Shown piece after piece: positions 1 to 52,382 of a DNA stretch of 54,028 nt. The stretch spans positions 47,557-101,584 of the forward strand of contig CAYTIK010000001.1 of assembly GCA_964438025.1 (NCBI GenBank). The letters run 5' to 3'. Source of the stretch: an uncultured Bdellovibrionales bacterium. GTDB lineage: Bacteria > Patescibacteriota > Minisyncoccia > Moranbacterales > UBA2206. A program made the translations under genes and the position numbers. How positions within the stretch are numbered: the first letter of the stretch is position 1; every line of letters starts with the position of its first letter. Under the pieces are notes generated by a model that saw only the letters and a list, made by a program, of their open reading frames with translations, made no database searches and was not told where the DNA came from.

Positions 1-1230
1 ATGGGAGGGACGTTTTCGGCGTTACCGAAAAATTATCAACAAAAATTCATTTCTGAATGTTTTCGGGCTTGTAATGACTACCCTAAAAAGTTCAAAGTTC
101 AAAGTTCAAAGTTCAAAGATTTTAATTTATTATTATCTAAAGAACAAAAAAGAAGCGAAAAAGCCAAACACCGGATTATTGGACTGACTTTGGAAACTCG
201 GCCGGATTTTATTAATGAAGCAGAAATTTTAAATTTTCGCCAGCTTGGTTGCACGCGCGTAGAACTGGGCGTGCAAAGTATCTTTAATGATGTTTTGGAA
301 ATTAATAAGCGCGGCCATAAAATAGAGGCCTCTATAGAAGCCACTAAATTATTGAAGGATGCCGGCTTCAAAATCAATTACCATATGATGCCTGGTCTCC
401 CCGGCTCTAATCCCAAAAAAGATTTTTTGATGTTTCAAAAATTATTTTCCAACCCCAATTTTCAACCGGATATGCTGAAAATTTATCCGACCGTGGTTAC
501 CAAAAATAGTGCGTTATATAAATTATGGCGCCAGGGAAAATATCAACCGCTCAATGATAACCAATTTAAAAAGTTGATTTTAAAAATTAAAAAAGAGGCC
601 ATTCCACCTTACGTTCGCATTTCCCGCCTGGTGCGCGACGTTCCCGCGACTTCCATTGTGGCCGGGCCGAAAATTTCCAACTTGCGCCAACTAATTATTC
701 CCGAGTCGCTTTGCCAGTGCATCCGTTGCCGGGAAGTGGGCAGTAATTATGCTTTAAAAGAAAAAATAATTCTCGACCGCATTGATTATCCAGCTTCCGA
801 TGGAAAAGAAATATTTTTACAGTACATTTCTAAAGATAAGCAGAAACTGTTTGCCCTGCTTCGTTTACGCATACCTAGCCTTTGCCATTCCGGACTTAAT
901 CCGGAATCTAGAGAAAAAAAAGAAAAATATTTTCTGGATTCCCGCATTCGCGGGAATGACAAGTTGTATGGATTACTACCTATTTTAAAAAATGCCGCCC
1001 TCATCCGTGAAATCCATACTTACGGCCAGCTGACCCAAATAGATAAATATGATAAGAAATCTCCCCAGCATTTCGGCCTGGGAAAGAAATTAATGGCCAC
1101 AGCAGAAAAAATCGCCAAAAAAGAGTTTCAGTTAAAGAAAATCGCCGTGATTTCCGGCATCGGCGCGCGCGGGTATTACCGTAAATTGGGTTATAGTCAA
1201 AAAGATGGCTATATGGTAAAATCGATTTAA
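1..1230 (+). CDS. elp3: Elp3-family radical-SAM/GNAT tRNA modification enzyme; N-terminus lies outside the window
   Basis: ORF is open from base 1. Radical-SAM core motifs RIIGLTLETRPD, GCTRVELGVQS, HMMPGLPG, LKIYPT. C-terminal GNAT-like FGLGKKLM...GARGYYRKLGY. Confidence 0.8.
   Translation: MGGTFSALPKNYQQKFISECFRACNDYPKKFKVQSSKFKDFNLLLSKEQKRSEKAKHRIIGLTLETRPDFINEAEILNFRQLGCTRVELGVQSIFNDVLEINKRGHKIEASIEATKLLKDAGFKINYHMMPGLPGSNPKKDFLMFQKLFSNPNFQPDMLKIYPTVVTKNSALYKLWRQGKYQPLNDNQFKKLILKIKKEAIPPYVRISRLVRDVPATSIVAGPKISNLRQLIIPESLCQCIRCREVGSNYALKEKIILDRIDYPASDGKEIFLQYISKDKQKLFALLRLRIPSLCHSGLNPESREKKEKYFLDSRIRGNDKLYGLLPILKNAALIREIHTYGQLTQIDKYDKKSPQHFGLGKKLMATAEKIAKKEFQLKKIAVISGIGARGYYRKLGYSQKDGYMVKSI
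91..118 (+). repeat. Perfect tandem heptanucleotide repeat (TTCAAAG)x4 inside the elp3 CDS
   Basis: Read directly: ttcaaag ttcaaag ttcaaag ttcaaag, translated as FKVQSSKFK. Confidence 0.9.
887..957. repeat. About 71-nt element with two 8-bp-stem GC-rich hairpins, in frame inside elp3
   Basis: ATTCCGGA-cttaa-TCCGGAAT (887-907) and ATTCCCGC-attc-GCGGGAAT (938-957), separated by an A-rich spacer. Encodes HSGLNPESREKKEKYFLDSRIRGND in the variable LRLR...ALIRE(I/L)H segment. Confidence 0.75.
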
Positions 1231-2779: not shown

Positions 2780-3071
2780 CCCCGCACTAATTTTTATTTA
2801 AAGATTTTTTTATTCTTTTTTTCAATTGAGCAAGCGCTTGGCCATGCTGTTTTATTTGTTTTTCTTTTTCCCATGCATCTTCTTCTGCAAAATAAGCTTC
2901 GTAATAAACAAGCTTCCATTTGTGATTTTTTGTATATAAAGAATGGCTATCATTATGTTGAAAAAATCTTTTTTTAAATCACTCGTACAGCCATAATATA
3001 ATTCGTTTTTTTCATTTTTTAGCACATAGAAGTAATGCATACGAATTAAAATAATAAAAGTTAGTGCGGGG
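2780..3071 (-). mobile_element. TIR-bounded GIY-YIG mini-element, copy 1 (ORF frameshifted)
   Basis: Arms CCCCGCACTAATTTTT (2780-2795) and AAAAGTTAGTGCGGGG (3056-3071) are 15/16 complementary. Same architecture and size (292 bp) as 37624-37914. Confidence 0.7.
2787..3040 (-). pseudogene. GIY-YIG (YhbQ/UPF0213-like) nuclease gene, interrupted by a 1-nt frameshift in an A7 run
   Basis: MHYFYVLKNEKNELYYGCTSDLKK continues in another frame as RFFQHNDSHSLYTKNHKWKLVYYEAYFAEEDAWEKEKQIKQHGQALAQLKKRIKKSLNKN*. The shift is at A7 (plus-strand T7, 2969-2975). About 65% identical by eye to the intact paralog at 37631-37885. Confidence 0.7.
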
Positions 3072-6304: not shown

Positions 6305-6342
6305 ATACTACATTTTATTGCATATGCAATGATTTATAGTAT
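6305..6342. promoter_or_regulatory. 38-nt composite palindrome immediately 3' of the PaaX-like gene
   Basis: ATACTACATTTTATTGCATATGCAATGATTTATAGTAT. Central perfect 14-bp palindrome ATTGCATATGCAAT plus outer 8-nt arms. Confidence 0.8.
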
Positions 6343-6938: not shown

Positions 6939-6976
6939 ATACTACATTTTATTGCATATGCAATGATTTGTAGTAT
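6939..6976. promoter_or_regulatory. Second copy of the 38-nt composite palindrome, 5' of the PaaX-like gene
   Basis: ATACTACATTTTATTGCATATGCAATGATTTGTAGTAT, 37/38 identical to 6305-6342. Confidence 0.8.
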
Positions 6977-20472: not shown

Positions 20473-20591
20473 ATTTATAATTTTTAATTTCCAATTTTTA
20501 ATTTCGAATGAATTTTGAATGTTTTAATTTTAAATTTTTAAACATTTAGTCACTCAATTTTGATTCAAAATTCGAAATTCATAATTCAAAA

Positions 20592-21080
20592 TTATTTAAT
20601 TGCTTTAGCAATTAAATCTCTGTCCCTGCCAGAATCCATCTTCTCCCCGATAATTTTTTCCGTCGCCGACATTATGAGCTCCGCAATTTCCGTCTTGGCT
20701 TCTTTGACGGCTTTATCCTTTTCCTGCTGGATCTGTTTTTTGGCGTCTTCCAAAATTTTACCCGATTGAACTTTCGCCGTTATTTCCAAATCTTTAGCAT
20801 TTTGCAGAGCGGTTTTTTCTGATTGTTGGATAATTTTTTGCGCTTCTTCTCTAGCCTTCTGCAGCACTGCTTTTTCTTTTTTCTCCATCTCGGCTAACTT
20901 TATTTGAGAATTTTCCGCATCCTGGATGCCTTTTTCAATTTTGGAACTTCTGTCGTTAAGCGTCTTAAGAATCGGTTTGTAAGCGAATTTCCACAGCACG
21001 AATAAAACTATCCCAAAATTCACGGCTTGCGCGATAATTAACTTAATGTCGATGTGAAATGTTTTTATGAGTTCTTCCAT
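20592..21080 (-). CDS. atpF: F0 ATP synthase b subunit
   Basis: N-terminal TM helix followed by a long charged coiled coil; operon position. Confidence 0.85.
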   Translation of the reverse strand: MEELIKTFHIDIKLIIAQAVNFGIVLFVLWKFAYKPILKTLNDRSSKIEKGIQDAENSQIKLAEMEKKEKAVLQKAREEAQKIIQQSEKTALQNAKDLEITAKVQSGKILEDAKKQIQQEKDKAVKEAKTEIAELIMSATEKIIGEKMDSGRDRDLIAKAIK

Positions 21081-21195
21081 AGTTTAAATTGTTAGATGGT
21101 TATATTGTTAAATGGTTTAAAATTTATTTCAGCCATATGACAATTTAGCAATTTAGCCTTTTCTAATTGATTGCTAATGGCCTTAATCTGATCCC

Positions 21196-21211
21196 TCCGC
21201 CAGCTGGCGGA
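21196..21211. repeat. Perfect 16-bp palindrome TCCGCCAGCTGGCGGA between atpE and atpF
   Basis: Read directly. An identical 16-mer is at 53188-53203. Confidence 0.9.
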
Positions 21212-21233
21212 TTGGGACCAAATAAAGTCACTA

Positions 21234-21521
<288 letters not shown>

Positions 21522-21607
21522 TTAACAATGGTTAAATAGCTAGATTGTTAAATGGTTTTTTTAATTTTATCTTAACAATTTAACAATATAACAATTCAAC
21601 AATATAG

Positions 21608-22730: not shown

Positions 22731-22787
22731 AAAAATATTATTTTGTACCCCAGTTATTATTTTCTACTAGGATTTAAAAAAAGTCAA

Positions 22788-22852
22788 CCCCGCACTAACT
22801 TTTTACCTTTTTTATTTTTTGCGCTTTGGCGCAGTAAAAAGTTAGTGCGGGG
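22788..22852. mobile_element. ORF-less 65-bp derivative of the GIY-YIG element (TIRs only)
   Basis: CCCCGCACTAACTTTTT (22788-22804) and AAAAAGTTAGTGCGGGG (22836-22852) are 17/17 complementary. The 31-nt loop has its own TGCGC-tttg-GCGCA hairpin. Confidence 0.75.
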
Positions 22853-36242: not shown

Positions 36243-36316
36243 TGGTGGACTTAGCGAGAATCGAACTCGCGTCTCCGCAATGCGAATGCGGCGTGCTACC
36301 ACTATACCATAAGCCC
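36243..36316 (-). tRNA. tRNA-Ala (anticodon CGC), CCA encoded
   Basis: GGGCTTA TG GTAT AGTGGTA GCAC G CCGCA TTCGCAT TGCGG AGAC GCGAG TTCGATT CTCGC TAAGTCC ACCA. G3.U70 is present. Confidence 0.9.
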
Positions 36317-36400: not shown

Positions 36401-37585
36401 TTATAAATATTTTTTTCCTTTTAATTCCTTCGGTAAATATTCTTGCTCCGAGCTATCCTCTACTGGCGTATATTTGTAGCCCTGGCCGTATTTTAAATCT
36501 TTCATTAATTTTGTGGGCGCGTTCCGGATATGGAGCGGCACCGGCAAATTACCCCATTTTTCCACATCTTCCTTGGCTTTATTATAAGCTTCATAAGCTA
36601 CGATGCTTTTCTGACTTTTGGCCAAATAAATTACGCATTGCGCCAAATGGACGTTGCATTCAGGATAACCTAACTTGTGGCAGGCGTCAAAAACCGCATT
36701 GGCTAAAAGAAGAGCTGTATTATTAGCCAGCCCGATATCTTCACTAGCAAAACGCACTAATCTCCGAGCAATATAGAGCGGATCTTCCCCGCCTTCCACC
36801 ATCCGCGCCAGCCAATAAACGGCCGCATCCGCATCGCCGCCGCGCATGGATTTATGCAGCGCGGAAATTATATTATAATGTTCTTCCCCGCTTTTATCAT
36901 AAAGCAGATGGGATTTTTGCAAAACTTTTTTGACCAATTCTTCCGTCACTTCCACCCTTTGATTTAAACACGCTTCCAAGGTATTGAGAGCCATCCGGGC
37001 GTCGCCGTTGGAAAAACGCGCAATCATTTTCAAAATATCCGTTTTGACTTTTTTCTGTATTTTCTGCAACGCTCTTTGGAGAATTTTTTCAATATCTTCA
37101 TTGCCCAATCTTTGCAAAACAAAAACTCTGGCGCGAGAAAGTAAAGCGGAGATAACTTCAAAACTGGGATTTTCCGTGGTCGCCCCGATTAAAGTCAGCG
37201 TTCCGTTTTCTACTTGCGGCAAGAGCGCGTCCTGCTGGGCTTTATTCCAGCGATGAATTTCATCGATAAACAATACTGTTTTACGCCCGATTTTTCTATT
37301 CCCTTTGGCTCTTTCAATAATTTTCAACAAATCTTTTTTACCGCTCGATACCGCGCTTAAATTCAAAAAATCCGACTGCGTTTCTTTGGCAATAATAAAA
37401 GCCAGGGTGGTTTTGCCGCTCCCTGGCGGTCCCCAAAAAATCAAAGACGGTACGCGATCACTCTTAATTGCCCCCCTCAAGAAGGAACCTTGGCCCAAAA
37501 GCTCTGCCTGCCCAAAAACCTCCTCAAGACTTTGAGGACGGATAATATCGGCTAAAGGTGCATTGAGTGCAGAGTTATTTTCCAT
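36401..37585 (-). CDS. rarA: Replication-associated recombination protein A (AAA+ ATPase)
   Basis: [21 protein letters not shown], MgsA C-terminal domain. Start moved to MENNSALN. Confidence 0.92.
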
Positions 37586-37623
37586 CAAGTCTATCTTAAG
37601 CCATAACCGCCATTTCCGCAAAA

Positions 37624-37914
37624 CCCCGCGCTAACTTTCGTTCAAAGATTTTTTGATTCTTTTTCGCAGTTGCGCCCAGGCTTGTCCGAATTGTTTAATT
37701 TGTTTTTCCCTCTCTTCAGCATCCTCTTTTGAAAGATAAGCTTCGCAATAAATAAGTTTCCATTTATGATTTTTCGTAGAAAAAGAATTGCCATTGTTAT
37801 GCTCAAAAAATCTTTTTTTTAGATTATTAGTATAGCCATAATACAATTTCTGGATTTCATTTTTAATCACGTAAAAATAATACATATAGAATAATAACGA
37901 AAGTTAGTGCGGGA
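37624..37914 (-). mobile_element. TIR-bounded GIY-YIG mini-element, intact copy
   Basis: Arms CCCCGCGCTAACTTTCGTT (37624-37642) and AACGAAAGTTAGTGCGGGA (37896-37914) are 17/19 complementary. 291 bp in total. Confidence 0.75.
37631..37885 (-). CDS. GIY-YIG nuclease family protein (YhbQ/UPF0213-like, 84 aa)
   Basis: YFYVIKN...LYYGYTNNLKKRFFEHN...CEAYLSKEDAEEREKQIK (GIY / YIG / R / E pattern). Confidence 0.85.
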   Translation of the reverse strand: MYYFYVIKNEIQKLYYGYTNNLKKRFFEHNNGNSFSTKNHKWKLIYCEAYLSKEDAEEREKQIKQFGQAWAQLRKRIKKSLNES

Positions 37915-39052
37915 CTCTTAATTTTTTCATCAAATCCAGATAAAATTTCAGATTATGGAGAGAAGCCAAGCGCATCGCCAACGGTTCTTTGGCCGCAAAT
38001 AGATGGTGCAAATAAGCCCGGCTGTAATTCCGGCACAATTCACAGGTGCAATTTCTATCTACCGGCTTAAAGTCTTTCTTAAATTTTTTATTATTGATAT
38101 TTAGCGTTTCGTAAAAATTTCCAGAAAGTGCTTTCTTTTTCCAAAGAAAAAGCCGTCCATGACGTCCCTCGCGCGTGGGAATCACACAATCAAACATATC
38201 CCAGCCGTAGGAAACCGCACGGACAATGTCTTCCGGCGTGCCAATGCCCAGCGCAAACTTAAGTTTGTCATCCGGAATAAAGCTGGCAGTTTTTTGCAAA
38301 ACTTCGGCCAAAAAATTACCTTCGCCATCCACATGGCGAGCGCCAAAGCCGTAGCCATCCCAGCCTACGGCTGGTCCGTCCGCTCCCTGGCGGACGGAAG
38401 AACCAATTTTAATCAGTTCTTCCACACATTTTTTCCTTAAGTCTAAATATTCGCCTCCTTGAATAACACAAAAAATTAACGGCCTATCCGCTTTTTTTAT
38501 TTTTCTAACTTTCAACTGCTTTTTATACTCAATCATACAACGCTCCGCCCAAATAATCGTCCGCTCCACCGCTTGCCTGATTTTTTCTTTGCTAAAGTCG
38601 TTAGGCGGTGGATCATCCAGGCACACCAGCATATCCACTCCCAAATCAAATTGAATTTGAATTGATTTTTCCGGAGTTAACTCATGATGGGAACCATCCA
38701 GCGGCGAACGGAAAACAACTTTCTGGTCCGTAATTTTTCCCACCTGCGGATTTTTGTGAATCAAAGAGAAAACCTGGTAGCCGCCGCTATCGGAAAGCAA
38801 CGGTTTCTGCCATTGCATAAATCGATGTACGCCTCCCGCTTTTTTGATAATTTCTATTCCCGGTTGGAGATATAAATGATACGTGTTAACCACCATCGGA
38901 CCAATATTAATATCTTCCAAGTCTTTTTGGCTCAAGGATTTGACAAATCCTCGCGTCGCATCCGGCATAAAAAACGGAGTTTTAATTACTCCGCTTTTAG
39001 TTTCCAATCGGCCTTGGCGATTTTTTTTTCCTGCTAGTTTAAACATGCGCAA
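37904..39052 (-). CDS. tgt: Queuine tRNA-ribosyltransferase
   Basis: TPFFMPDATRG, SDSGGYQVFSL, zinc site CTCELC...H. Confidence 0.93.
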   Translation of the reverse strand: MRMFKLAGKKNRQGRLETKSGVIKTPFFMPDATRGFVKSLSQKDLEDINIGPMVVNTYHLYLQPGIEIIKKAGGVHRFMQWQKPLLSDSGGYQVFSLIHKNPQVGKITDQKVVFRSPLDGSHHELTPEKSIQIQFDLGVDMLVCLDDPPPNDFSKEKIRQAVERTIIWAERCMIEYKKQLKVRKIKKADRPLIFCVIQGGEYLDLRKKCVEELIKIGSSVRQGADGPAVGWDGYGFGARHVDGEGNFLAEVLQKTASFIPDDKLKFALGIGTPEDIVRAVSYGWDMFDCVIPTREGRHGRLFLWKKKALSGNFYETLNINNKKFKKDFKPVDRNCTCELCRNYSRAYLHHLFAAKEPLAMRLASLHNLKFYLDLMKKLRVPH

Positions 39053-51922: not shown

Positions 51923-51958
51923 CCCGCCCGCATCGCTACGCGAAGCGTGGCGGGCGGG
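51923..51958. repeat. 36-nt GC-rich hairpin element abutting the tmRNA 5' end
   Basis: CCCGCCCGCATCGCTACGCGAAGCGTGGCGGGCGGG, 31/36 identical to the ileS copy. Confidence 0.85.
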
Positions 51959-52371
51959 GGTTGTTAAGTTTCGACAATTTGTACTTTCCAAACAAGCAAG
52001 CCGAGGATGATAATAGCTCGCTAAACCTTTATCAAAAGTTATAAGTGCCAACTTCATAACTAAAGCAAAATCGGTATTAGCTAACGCTTTTACCGCAAAT
52101 TTTGCCCTAGCCTTAGCCTAACCGCTTCCAAGCGGAGTTAAGGTTCATCGAATTGCCGATTTCTCATAGGCAAACCTCGGTGTCATATATGAGGATAGTC
52201 AAATAAGGCGTTCTAAACTTTTTTGGCGAAGCTAAATTTAGAAATAGATTGAGAAGGTTTTGTCCGCTTTCCACTTCCTAATCGAAGCTCGCAAGGCTTT
52301 AAAGCTGAATACGCTTGTAGAATGTTTTGAAAGAATAAATTTGGACGCGAGTGCAATTCTCGCCAACTCCA
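51957..52371 (+). ncRNA. ssrA: tmRNA (SsrA)
   Basis: 5' GGGGUUG...UUCGAC. 3' T-arm GCGAG-UGCAAUU-CUCGC and acceptor CAACUCC-A, giving a 7-bp stem with G3.U70. Tag ORF ends ...ANAFTANFALALA-UAA (52065-52121). Lies directly after smpB. Confidence 0.88.
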
Positions 52372-52382
52372 CTAATCATTAA

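Follow-up and report, generated by a model that had tools for sequence, protein, structure and literature searches.

We analysed a 54,028-nucleotide stretch of an uncultured Patescibacteriota genome (contig CAYTIK010000001.1, positions 47,557 to 101,584; hereafter the window), in which a small element carrying a GIY-YIG nuclease gene lies between tgt and rarA. As the initial annotation described it, the element is a discrete unit of 291 bp with an intact nuclease open reading frame (ORF), bounded by inverted repeats, here called arms, of which an inverted-repeat search recovered 18 nt at 94% complementarity. The ORF stop, CTA on the forward strand (37631-37633), lies within the left arm, and the 3' end of tgt (GTC CCG CAC TAA) within the right arm, both as first read. 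Arms of the form CCCCGCACTAAC…/…GTTAGTGCGGGG bound all three copies of the element in the window (Table 1), and a protein search found the exact focal protein on one contig only. The element is of a kind with the Ssn/NTS systems, which pair a nuclease with hairpin repeats, as detailed below.

The two further copies that the initial annotation had placed in the window, one frameshifted and one without an ORF, are both present and have the same arms. The former is 85% identical to the intact copy, with homology that starts and stops exactly at the arms, and the sole defect of its ORF is one base lost from an A8 run, both half-frames being otherwise open. This run, which codes for the conserved KKRFF motif, is itself maintained across the family and has an equivalent in the ORF at 37631-37885; slippage (phase variation) or a homopolymer assembly error is as likely an origin of the frameshift as true decay. 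Folded as single-stranded DNA (ssDNA), the 65-bp copy reaches -26.9 kcal/mol (z=-8.6); it lies 10 nt past the stop codon of a tatD-like gene and directly on the promoter of atpZ-like/atpB, with CAA repeated on both sides of the hairpin. The window holds 10 matches to the 12-mer arm core with at most two mismatches, against 1.66 expected, and none of 100 shuffles reached 10; four matches are unpaired, without a partner arm, and near chance. The inner variable stem bases differ between the gene-bearing and gene-less copies of the window. The short copies had been taken for deletion derivatives of the kind seen in pairs of autonomous elements and MITEs (miniature inverted-repeat transposable elements), a view that we abandon, as their interiors have no detectable homology to the ORF copies or to each other. 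Retention of the ORF 3' end in the 65-bp copy was likewise rejected, since blastn of the interiors gave nothing convincing.

Table 1. Features of the window, with positions counted from its first nucleotide.
Feature	Position	Strand	Remarks
Intact element	37624-37914		291-bp hairpin unit, nuclease gene in loop; homology to the 2780-3071 copy bounded exactly by the arms
Left arm, CCCCGCGCTAACTTTCGTT (forward-strand coordinates)	37624-37642		Holds the ORF stop; stem backed by covariation in 49 elements
Right arm, AACGAAAGTTAGTGCGGGA	37896-37914		Encodes the last three tgt codons, V-P-H, and the TAA stop
GIY-YIG nuclease ORF, 84 aa, single-domain	37631-37885	-	Pfam PF01541, fold, catalytic residues
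-10-like hexamer TATTAT	37891-37896	-	18 nt in from the outer end of the arm, 5 nt before ATG; consensus match only
tgt, queuine tRNA-ribosyltransferase	37904-39052	-	Pfam TGT, E=2.8e-114; 3' end overlaps the element by 11 nt
rarA/mgsA, AAA+ ATPase	36401-37621	-	Pfam; immediately downstream of the element; orthologous arrangement in L429
Second ORF-bearing copy, 292 bp	2780-3071		Arms 2780-2798 and 3053-3071 (19 nt, 95% complementary)
GIY-YIG ORF of second copy	2787-3040	-	One 1-nt deletion in a homopolymer (forward-strand T-run 2969-2975), otherwise intact
Gene-less copy, 65 bp	22788-22852		Perfect 19-bp stem 22788-22806 / 22834-22852; apical mini-hairpin TGCGC-TTTG-GCGCA
Host promoter abutting the 65-bp copy	22759-22787	-	TTGACT 22782-22787, 17 nt, GAAAAT 22759-22764; reads into atpZ-like/atpB
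tRNA-Ala(CGC)	36243-36316	-	Just downstream of rarA
tmRNA	51957-52374	+	Rfam scan of the window

The arms are the two halves of a hairpin, whose stem consists of 15 conserved bp, (C/T)CCCGCACTAACTTT, followed by about 4 bp that vary in sequence and remain complementary, and whose loop contains either the 84-aa GIY-YIG gene or an unrelated short sequence. In a fixed-register alignment of 49 non-redundant elements, stem positions 1-19 were paired in 82-100% of cells and pairing collapsed past position 19; positions 1-15 were conserved, and positions 16-19 varied freely while still being complementary. Compensatory changes were observed in 18 of 22 pairs, with a covariation score of 0.37 compared with 0.06-0.09 for slid controls, a result that none of 500 shuffles attained. 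As ssDNA, short copies fold with energies of -21 to -31 kcal/mol (z -7 to -9).

The arms are found throughout Patescibacteria, where they enclose interiors of 36-309 bp. Scanning genome-wide with a 14-mer of the arm gave many chance single matches, together with opposite-strand pairs 36-292 bp apart, all of them in Patescibacteria metagenome-assembled genomes (MAGs). The proposal that gene-less copies share the arms of the gene-bearing ones is supported, and the repeat is dispersed without the gene both as the 65-bp window copy and as 18 gene-less copies, against 2 gene-bearing ones, in the unbiased genome scan. Nearly all ORFs of the clade to which the window nuclease belongs are bracketed by inverted arms, the downstream one of which contains the stop codon, and arm sequences follow the protein lineage (Patescibacteria, Omnitrophota, Nitrospirales, Planctomycetota, Acidiferrales). 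A sister clade with a GREKFLKSGSGW C-terminus has no arms, its best inverted-repeat scores being 6-10, compared with 14-20 for most loci of the arm-bearing clade. Viral contigs gave 63 single 14-mer matches and no genuine paired element, and tblastn against plasmids gave no match. Arm pairs up to 3 kb apart in the comparison loci fetched from other genomes (L-numbers) enclose host genes, such as ftsZ, and no transposase; no larger element with the same arms and a transposase was found among these loci, to which the search was limited. An Rfam scan of the whole window detected only the tmRNA and one tRNA, with no match at the hairpins. An integron attC site, a DNA-uptake sequence and a retron were rejected as identities for the repeat, given the gene inside the palindrome, a density of about 1 per 18 kb and no reverse transcriptase or integrase nearby.

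Two of the fetched loci carry the arms in other arrangements. At L092 (1531-1669), from a Patescibacteria MAG, an intact tRNA-Ala(TGC) (1565-1638), part of a tRNA cluster, lies between the same arms, which here have an 8-bp extended stem, and the sequence just outside the arms resembles the 5' and 3' parts of another tRNA, with a T-arm and CCACCA directly downstream. Excision in silico, with 0-6 nt trimmed on each side, restored no tRNA at this locus, and no rRNA lies nearby. At L124 (1402-1770), the upstream arm of an ORF copy is missing its conserved outer part, and a complete, separate 65-bp hairpin precedes this copy; the 7-nt TCAATAC follows both the short hairpin and the downstream arm of the ORF, which suggests recombination or nested insertion between elements.

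Evidence for mobility comes from the junctions of the elements and from their positions in related genomes. An exact 4-bp direct repeat was found at the junctions of 22 of 52 elements, and of 24 of 55 after further loci were added; off-register controls gave 0-2, permuted flanks gave a mean of 2.9 and a maximum of 8, and inverted flanks occurred in a single one of the 52. Five 4-mers are duplicated (TCAA/TTGA in 12 cases, TAAA in 4, TGTG/CACA in 4, TGAA/TTCA in 3 and CAAA in 1). Because the repeats comprise five different 4-mers, are direct and are specific to the register, we interpret them as target-site duplications; a conserved NTS-like motif, as an explanation of the TCAA flanks, was discarded on the same grounds. 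Duplications are equally frequent in ORF-size (11/24) and short copies (11/28); hairpins with the gene and hairpins without it have both arrived by insertion.

The insertions also have a preferred target. An outward promoter whose -35 box starts exactly at the junction is present in 13 of 55 elements, one of them the 65-bp window copy, compared with 0.27% of random positions; these promoters are of the form TTGAC[AT]-16/17-TATAAT-like. The dominance of TTGA among the duplications is thus explained by elements that sit on host -35 boxes, and after duplication the host promoter is still intact on one side. Close relatives of the focal copy have moved: a 93% nuclease homologue (L429/L430) occupies the same locus just upstream of rarA, and homologues of 85% (L431) and 83% (L432) have the same arms and inner stem in unrelated neighbourhoods, each with TTGA on both sides of the element and a host TTGACT-17-TATAAT immediately outside. 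The relocation of these homologues means that the element is mobile, which the initial annotation had supposed and which the target duplications support.

A separate pattern was seen at the right junction of the ORF-bearing elements of L119, L120, L121, L123 and L126, where elements with a TGTG duplication abut TGTG(G/C/T)ATAAC, which on the other strand reads as a DnaA-box (TTATNCACA). This group may derive from one ancestral insertion near an origin or a dnaA region, or may represent a second preferred target.

At the focal locus, the element had been proposed to have landed in the 3' end of tgt and to supply its terminus, and comparison of tgt loci upholds this. None of 80 orthologous Tgt proteins ends in VPH; they end 1-8 variable residues past a conserved ...LMKKLR. 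At the locus with the 93% nuclease homologue, Tgt ends in ...KKLRAPH, read from the same arm, and relative to the Ala of this orthologue the Val of the window protein results from a C-to-T change at the first arm base. In L302 and L340, rarA follows tgt after 111-130 bp without arms and without a GIY-YIG gene. For these three reasons we conclude that the arm supplies the terminus of Tgt; the insertion replaced the short variable C-terminal tail, and read-through from tgt is the probable source of transcripts of this copy. The insertion is common to two diverged genomes, the window and L429/L132, and is therefore old. The initial annotation had named three outcomes that would speak against it, namely a lack of further copies, arms that serve as terminators without the ORF, and Tgt proteins that end in VPH without the element; none of them was encountered.

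The nuclease matches a single Pfam family, PF01541 (E=4.7e-14), in the profile search that the initial annotation had proposed, and its AlphaFold (AF2) model, likewise proposed, has the GIY-YIG fold (beta-beta-alpha-beta-alpha) with a pLDDT of 90; in NCBIfam, no meaningful model matches it. Residues Y5, Y15 and E60, invariant in the family, align with the catalytic Y6, Y17 and E64 of canonical SsnA. The label "YhbQ/UPF0213-like" is only approximately right, as the family is about equidistant from UPF0213 and canonical SsnA. A single-sequence phmmer comparison with UPF0213 gave E=1e-3, and the family profile gave E=6e-13 and 51.8 bits (BH0048), against 43.6 bits for canonical SsnA. UPF0213/YhbQ and Slx1 do provide the best profile and fold matches among solved structures (UPF0213 1zg2 and 1ywl, followed by Slx1 nuclease domains; Foldseek, TM ~0.5, 24-28% identity), but the similarity is confined to the shared domain, and we know of no hairpin-repeat association for YhbQ. 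The family comprises more than 7,500 proteins at E<=1e-5, many of them on contigs of 0.5-1 kb, as expected of a repeat that breaks assemblies.

Purifying selection on the nuclease ORF is strong. Compared in pairs, copies from different loci and genomes give dN/dS values of 0.04-0.13, the repaired ORF of the 2780-3071 copy included (~0.1), and at synonymous divergence near saturation (dS >1.3) the 15-bp arms are still invariant. Many copies, among them L082, L136, L139, L141 and others, have a -10-like hexamer that lies 18-19 nt inside the upstream arm, with the ATG 5-7 nt after it, and in those with TTGA duplications the TTGA joins the first CC of the arm to form a TTGACC -35 box at the right spacing, both elements being consensus matches only. 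If this putative promoter is real, its position suggests that the element's own transcript would be leaderless and lack the upstream arm; an mRNA with only one arm would in turn speak for a stem that acts in DNA rather than in RNA.

The closest known counterpart is the Ssn family, small single-domain GIY-YIG ssDNA nucleases of about 94 aa (CDD cd10448; Chenal et al. 2025, Nat Commun, PMC11893778). These enzymes bind the hairpin repeat NTS/SRM, with the core TTCCCGCG...GCGGGAA, as ssDNA only and ignore RNA, and SsnA cuts site-specifically a few nt upstream of the NTS, also when the stem is split by arbitrary loop DNA in vitro (PMC11893778). The ssn genes are flanked on both sides by the repeat, of which hundreds of gene-less copies occur across the genome, and the authors likened the NTS-ssnA-NTS arrangement to an insertion sequence and to REP/RAYT units (PMC11893778). 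The initial annotation knew of no description of such an association for proteins of this kind; given that the nuclease/hairpin-repeat pairing and the REP/RAYT analogy were both set out by Chenal et al. 2025 (PMC11893778), its central idea was already published in kind. Neither target duplications nor -35 box targeting nor Patescibacteria are mentioned in the same paper (PMC11893778).

As a reference for canonical SsnA we used a 94-aa orthologue from Methylotenera (L202), found by an NTS scan, as a stand-in for the N. meningitidis protein; it has Y6, Y17 and E64 and is encoded between two complete NTS hairpins in inverted orientation. Profile-profile alignment (hhalign) of the window protein with this SsnA gave 97%, with all three catalytic residues aligned. 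In both systems, a GIY-YIG protein of 80-95 aa consists of a single domain and has the same catalytic Y/Y/E, its gene is bracketed by a hairpin-forming repeat with a CCCGC...GCGGG core, and the same repeat is scattered without the gene. They differ in anatomy, as here the gene lies inside one long split hairpin with a 19-bp stem, each flank being half of that hairpin, whereas the canonical gene lies between two complete short hairpins. Apart from some right half-sites, the arms fail to match the degenerate SRM pattern as published. The C-termini also differ (KQ(F/Y)GQA(W/L)AQLKRRIKKSL here, K(K/N)WxRxWKxxLIExxNPxW in the canonical proteins), and target duplications and -35 box targeting are seen here. 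From these sequence comparisons we conclude that the focal element, although it probably works like Ssn/NTS, is of a different anatomy and of a distinct protein clade, and that the whole element is co-linear with a single NTS, the loop of which has expanded to accommodate the extended stem and the gene. What is new relative to Ssn is the distinct clade, the nesting of the gene in a split hairpin, the target duplications and the promoter targeting.

Both types of system are present in this lineage, as a canonical NTS in the window and as an SsnA-type gene after tgt in other Moranbacteria. The former, at 934-961 in minus-strand reading, is a perfect NTS/SRM (TGTCATTCCCGCGAATGCGGGAATCCAG) and the sole match to the SRM pattern in the window (0.03 expected), which contains no canonical ssnA. 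It lies within an ELP3-like radical-SAM ORF (1-1230, forward strand), in which the in-frame reading is ...FLDSRIRGNDKL..., and resembles the in-frame palindromic insertions of Rickettsia; a second SRM-like hairpin, CCATTCCGGACTTAATCCGGAATCTAGAG, lies about 20 nt upstream in the opposite orientation (region 884-961). In the Moranbacteria loci L341 and L352, a canonical SsnA-type gene (…REKQLKNWHRDWKINLITKSNPNW…) lies directly after tgt, 74-78 nt past its stop, and is flanked by complete GTCATCCTGAAC-TTGT-TTCAGGATCTC hairpins, one of which, in L352, contains the tgt stop codon. Since SsnA-type units follow tgt in these two loci, the 3' end of tgt has been struck independently by both types of system.

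Other families of small repeats resemble the element in part. Like REP/BIME-RAYT units, it places a small nuclease gene between palindromic repeats of its own that are dispersed elsewhere in the genome as well, and recognition of a hairpin in ssDNA is the presumed mode of action in both. RAYT (TnpA-REP) is an HUH Y1 transposase related to those of IS200/IS605 and acts through a covalent tyrosine intermediate, whereas the protein here is a hydrolytic GIY-YIG enzyme by Pfam and predicted fold. To our knowledge, REP and IS200/IS605 elements make no target duplication, in contrast to the 4 bp found here. Insertion sequences and bacterial MITEs (Correia, RUP, Nezha) share with the element its terminal inverted repeats (19-bp arms) and short target duplications (24/55), and MITEs also the intergenic or promoter-proximal position and the many gene-less copies. 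The whole autonomous candidate is here only 291 bp, however, with gene-less interiors unrelated to the gene-bearing copy, and the fetched loci hold neither a DDE transposase partner nor a transposase-bearing parent with the same ends. GIY-YIG homing endonucleases of the I-TevI type are likewise selfish nuclease genes that promote their own spread. Homing enzymes have a separate DNA-binding domain and home to cognate alleles without inverted-repeat ends or target duplication. The protein here is a bare catalytic domain, and the element is chromosomal and intergenic, with no extra DNA-binding domain, intron or phage residence.

We consider it fairly probable that the element is a compact mobile hairpin with a nuclease of its own, that this nuclease recognises the arms when they are folded in ssDNA and cuts just outside the stem, and that gene-less copies are also mobilised in trans. 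According to this model, the nuclease would bind the stem of the arms wherever they fold in ssDNA, whether at replication forks, in a cruciform or in incoming transforming DNA, and would cut a few nt outside the foot of the stem. Since the stem is palindromic, the same site would be presented on both strands, giving cuts staggered by 4 nt at each end, and host ligation or repair would complete the movement into similarly cut TTGA sites. Several points weigh against this interpretation. GIY-YIG nucleases hydrolyse DNA and perform no strand transfer, which is why integration has to be assumed to rely on host functions. About half of all copies have no duplication, among them the focal copy (flanks aaaa and ctct), and the duplication counts may in part reflect shared ancestral insertions, with an estimated ~17 independent events. 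The unoccupied tgt-rarA loci, L302 and L340, come from more distant relatives rather than near-identical genomes and form no nucleotide-level pair of empty and filled sites. The model does not account for the interiors of the short copies, which are unrelated to the ORF copies. The resemblance to canonical SsnA is remote (BLASTP against L202, 34% over 59 aa, pairwise E=3e-8), where the homology criterion is a BLAST E<1e-10 to N. meningitidis SsnA, the threshold of the Ssn paper, or cd10448 as best CDD hit, and the mapped SsnA cut is several nt upstream of the NTS and not demonstrably 4 nt from the stem (PMC11893778).

A bolder version of the mobile-hairpin model, which we put forward tentatively as a possibility that falls short of being likely, would make the 291-bp unit a fully autonomous transposon, the smallest autonomous element known, with the 84-aa GIY-YIG enzyme as its sole protein and with hairpin-guided staggered cleavage followed by host ligation in place of strand transfer catalysed by a transposase. 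Such an element would home onto the TTGA of -35 boxes, where the duplication would preserve the host promoter and at the same time create the element's own. A domesticated host system is rather unlikely as the whole account. In it, the nuclease would, like Ssn/NTS in Neisseria, cut incoming ssDNA at hairpins and modulate natural transformation and recombination in bacteria dependent on DNA uptake, the hairpins would serve the host as "marks" and their movement would lie mostly in the past; it need not exclude the mobile-hairpin model. It is in keeping with the roughly 5-fold reduction by SsnA of transformation with NTS-bearing DNA in Neisseria (PMC11893778), with the old, stable tgt-rarA insertion common to the window and L429/L132 and with the canonical NTS in the window. 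Strong purifying selection on the ORF also fits but is equally expected for an active selfish nuclease, and the target duplications, the promoter targeting and the relocated 83-85% homologues are left unexplained.

The relation between gene and hairpin could also be the reverse, if gene-less hairpins were primary and spread by other means, and a free-standing GIY-YIG gene cut empty hairpins and was copied into their loops by repair, the short copies being targets rather than derivatives. We regard this as doubtful. The short-copy interiors unrelated to ORF copies, the excess of gene-less over gene-bearing copies (18 to 2 in the unbiased scan) and the precise fit of the ORF to the arms, with its stop in one and the -10-like box in the other, speak for it. 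Against this, the two kinds of copy are alike in the frequency and spectrum of their duplications, their inner stem bases differ in the window, the protein lacks the type of DNA-binding domain found in homing GIY-YIG enzymes, and another agent would be needed to spread the hairpins. In a further reading, the hairpins would be ordinary MITEs of an unlinked transposase, for example of a DDE insertion-sequence family with 4-bp duplications, and the GIY-YIG gene a passenger. Although terminal inverted repeats with a 4-bp target duplication are classic for DDE transposition, we judge this very improbable, as no longer element with these ends and a transposase occurs among the fetched loci, the arms change in step with the GIY-YIG clade across phyla and the sister clade lacks them, the ORF stop codon and putative promoter are embedded in the arms, and the inner 4 bp of the stem covary, which a protein-bound terminal repeat does not require. 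A role of the arms in RNA, as a terminator or processing stem, has next to nothing to recommend it: the 65-bp copy does lie 10 nt past a stop codon, with TTGAC and a T-run after it, and the L092 copy brackets a tRNA, but that T-run begins 5 nt past the stem, Rfam has no match at the hairpins, the sole terminator-like site in a scan lies outside the element, a symmetric palindrome bears the target duplications, and the predicted promoter inside the upstream arm would leave the element's own mRNA with one arm. The indifference of the related Ssn enzymes to RNA (PMC11893778) points the same way.

Two other groups of repeats in the window stand apart from these elements. An AT-rich cluster of inverted and direct repeats with AACAAT(T/A)TAAC-like units lies at 20485-21606, just upstream of the end of an atpB-like gene, with arms such as 21085-21117 / 21574-21606 and 21528-21557 / 21574-21603; the cluster has no relation to the arm motif of the hairpins. 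Two near-identical 38-nt palindromes (ATACTACATTTTATTGCATAT / ATATGCAATGATTT(A/G)TAGTAT) lie about 630 bp apart at 6305-6342 and 6939-6976.

If the nuclease does mobilise its own hairpin, the element would represent a transposition mechanism built on a hydrolytic GIY-YIG domain, and it would provide the genomic footprints of Ssn-like mobility that have been lacking so far, namely target duplications, relocated copies and unoccupied tgt-rarA loci in distant relatives. The clade also offers new pairs of nuclease and hairpin with long, programmable 19-bp stems for ssDNA-cutting tools. In the very small genomes of Patescibacteria, insertions that sit on -35 boxes and at the ends of genes can rewire transcription and change the termini of proteins.

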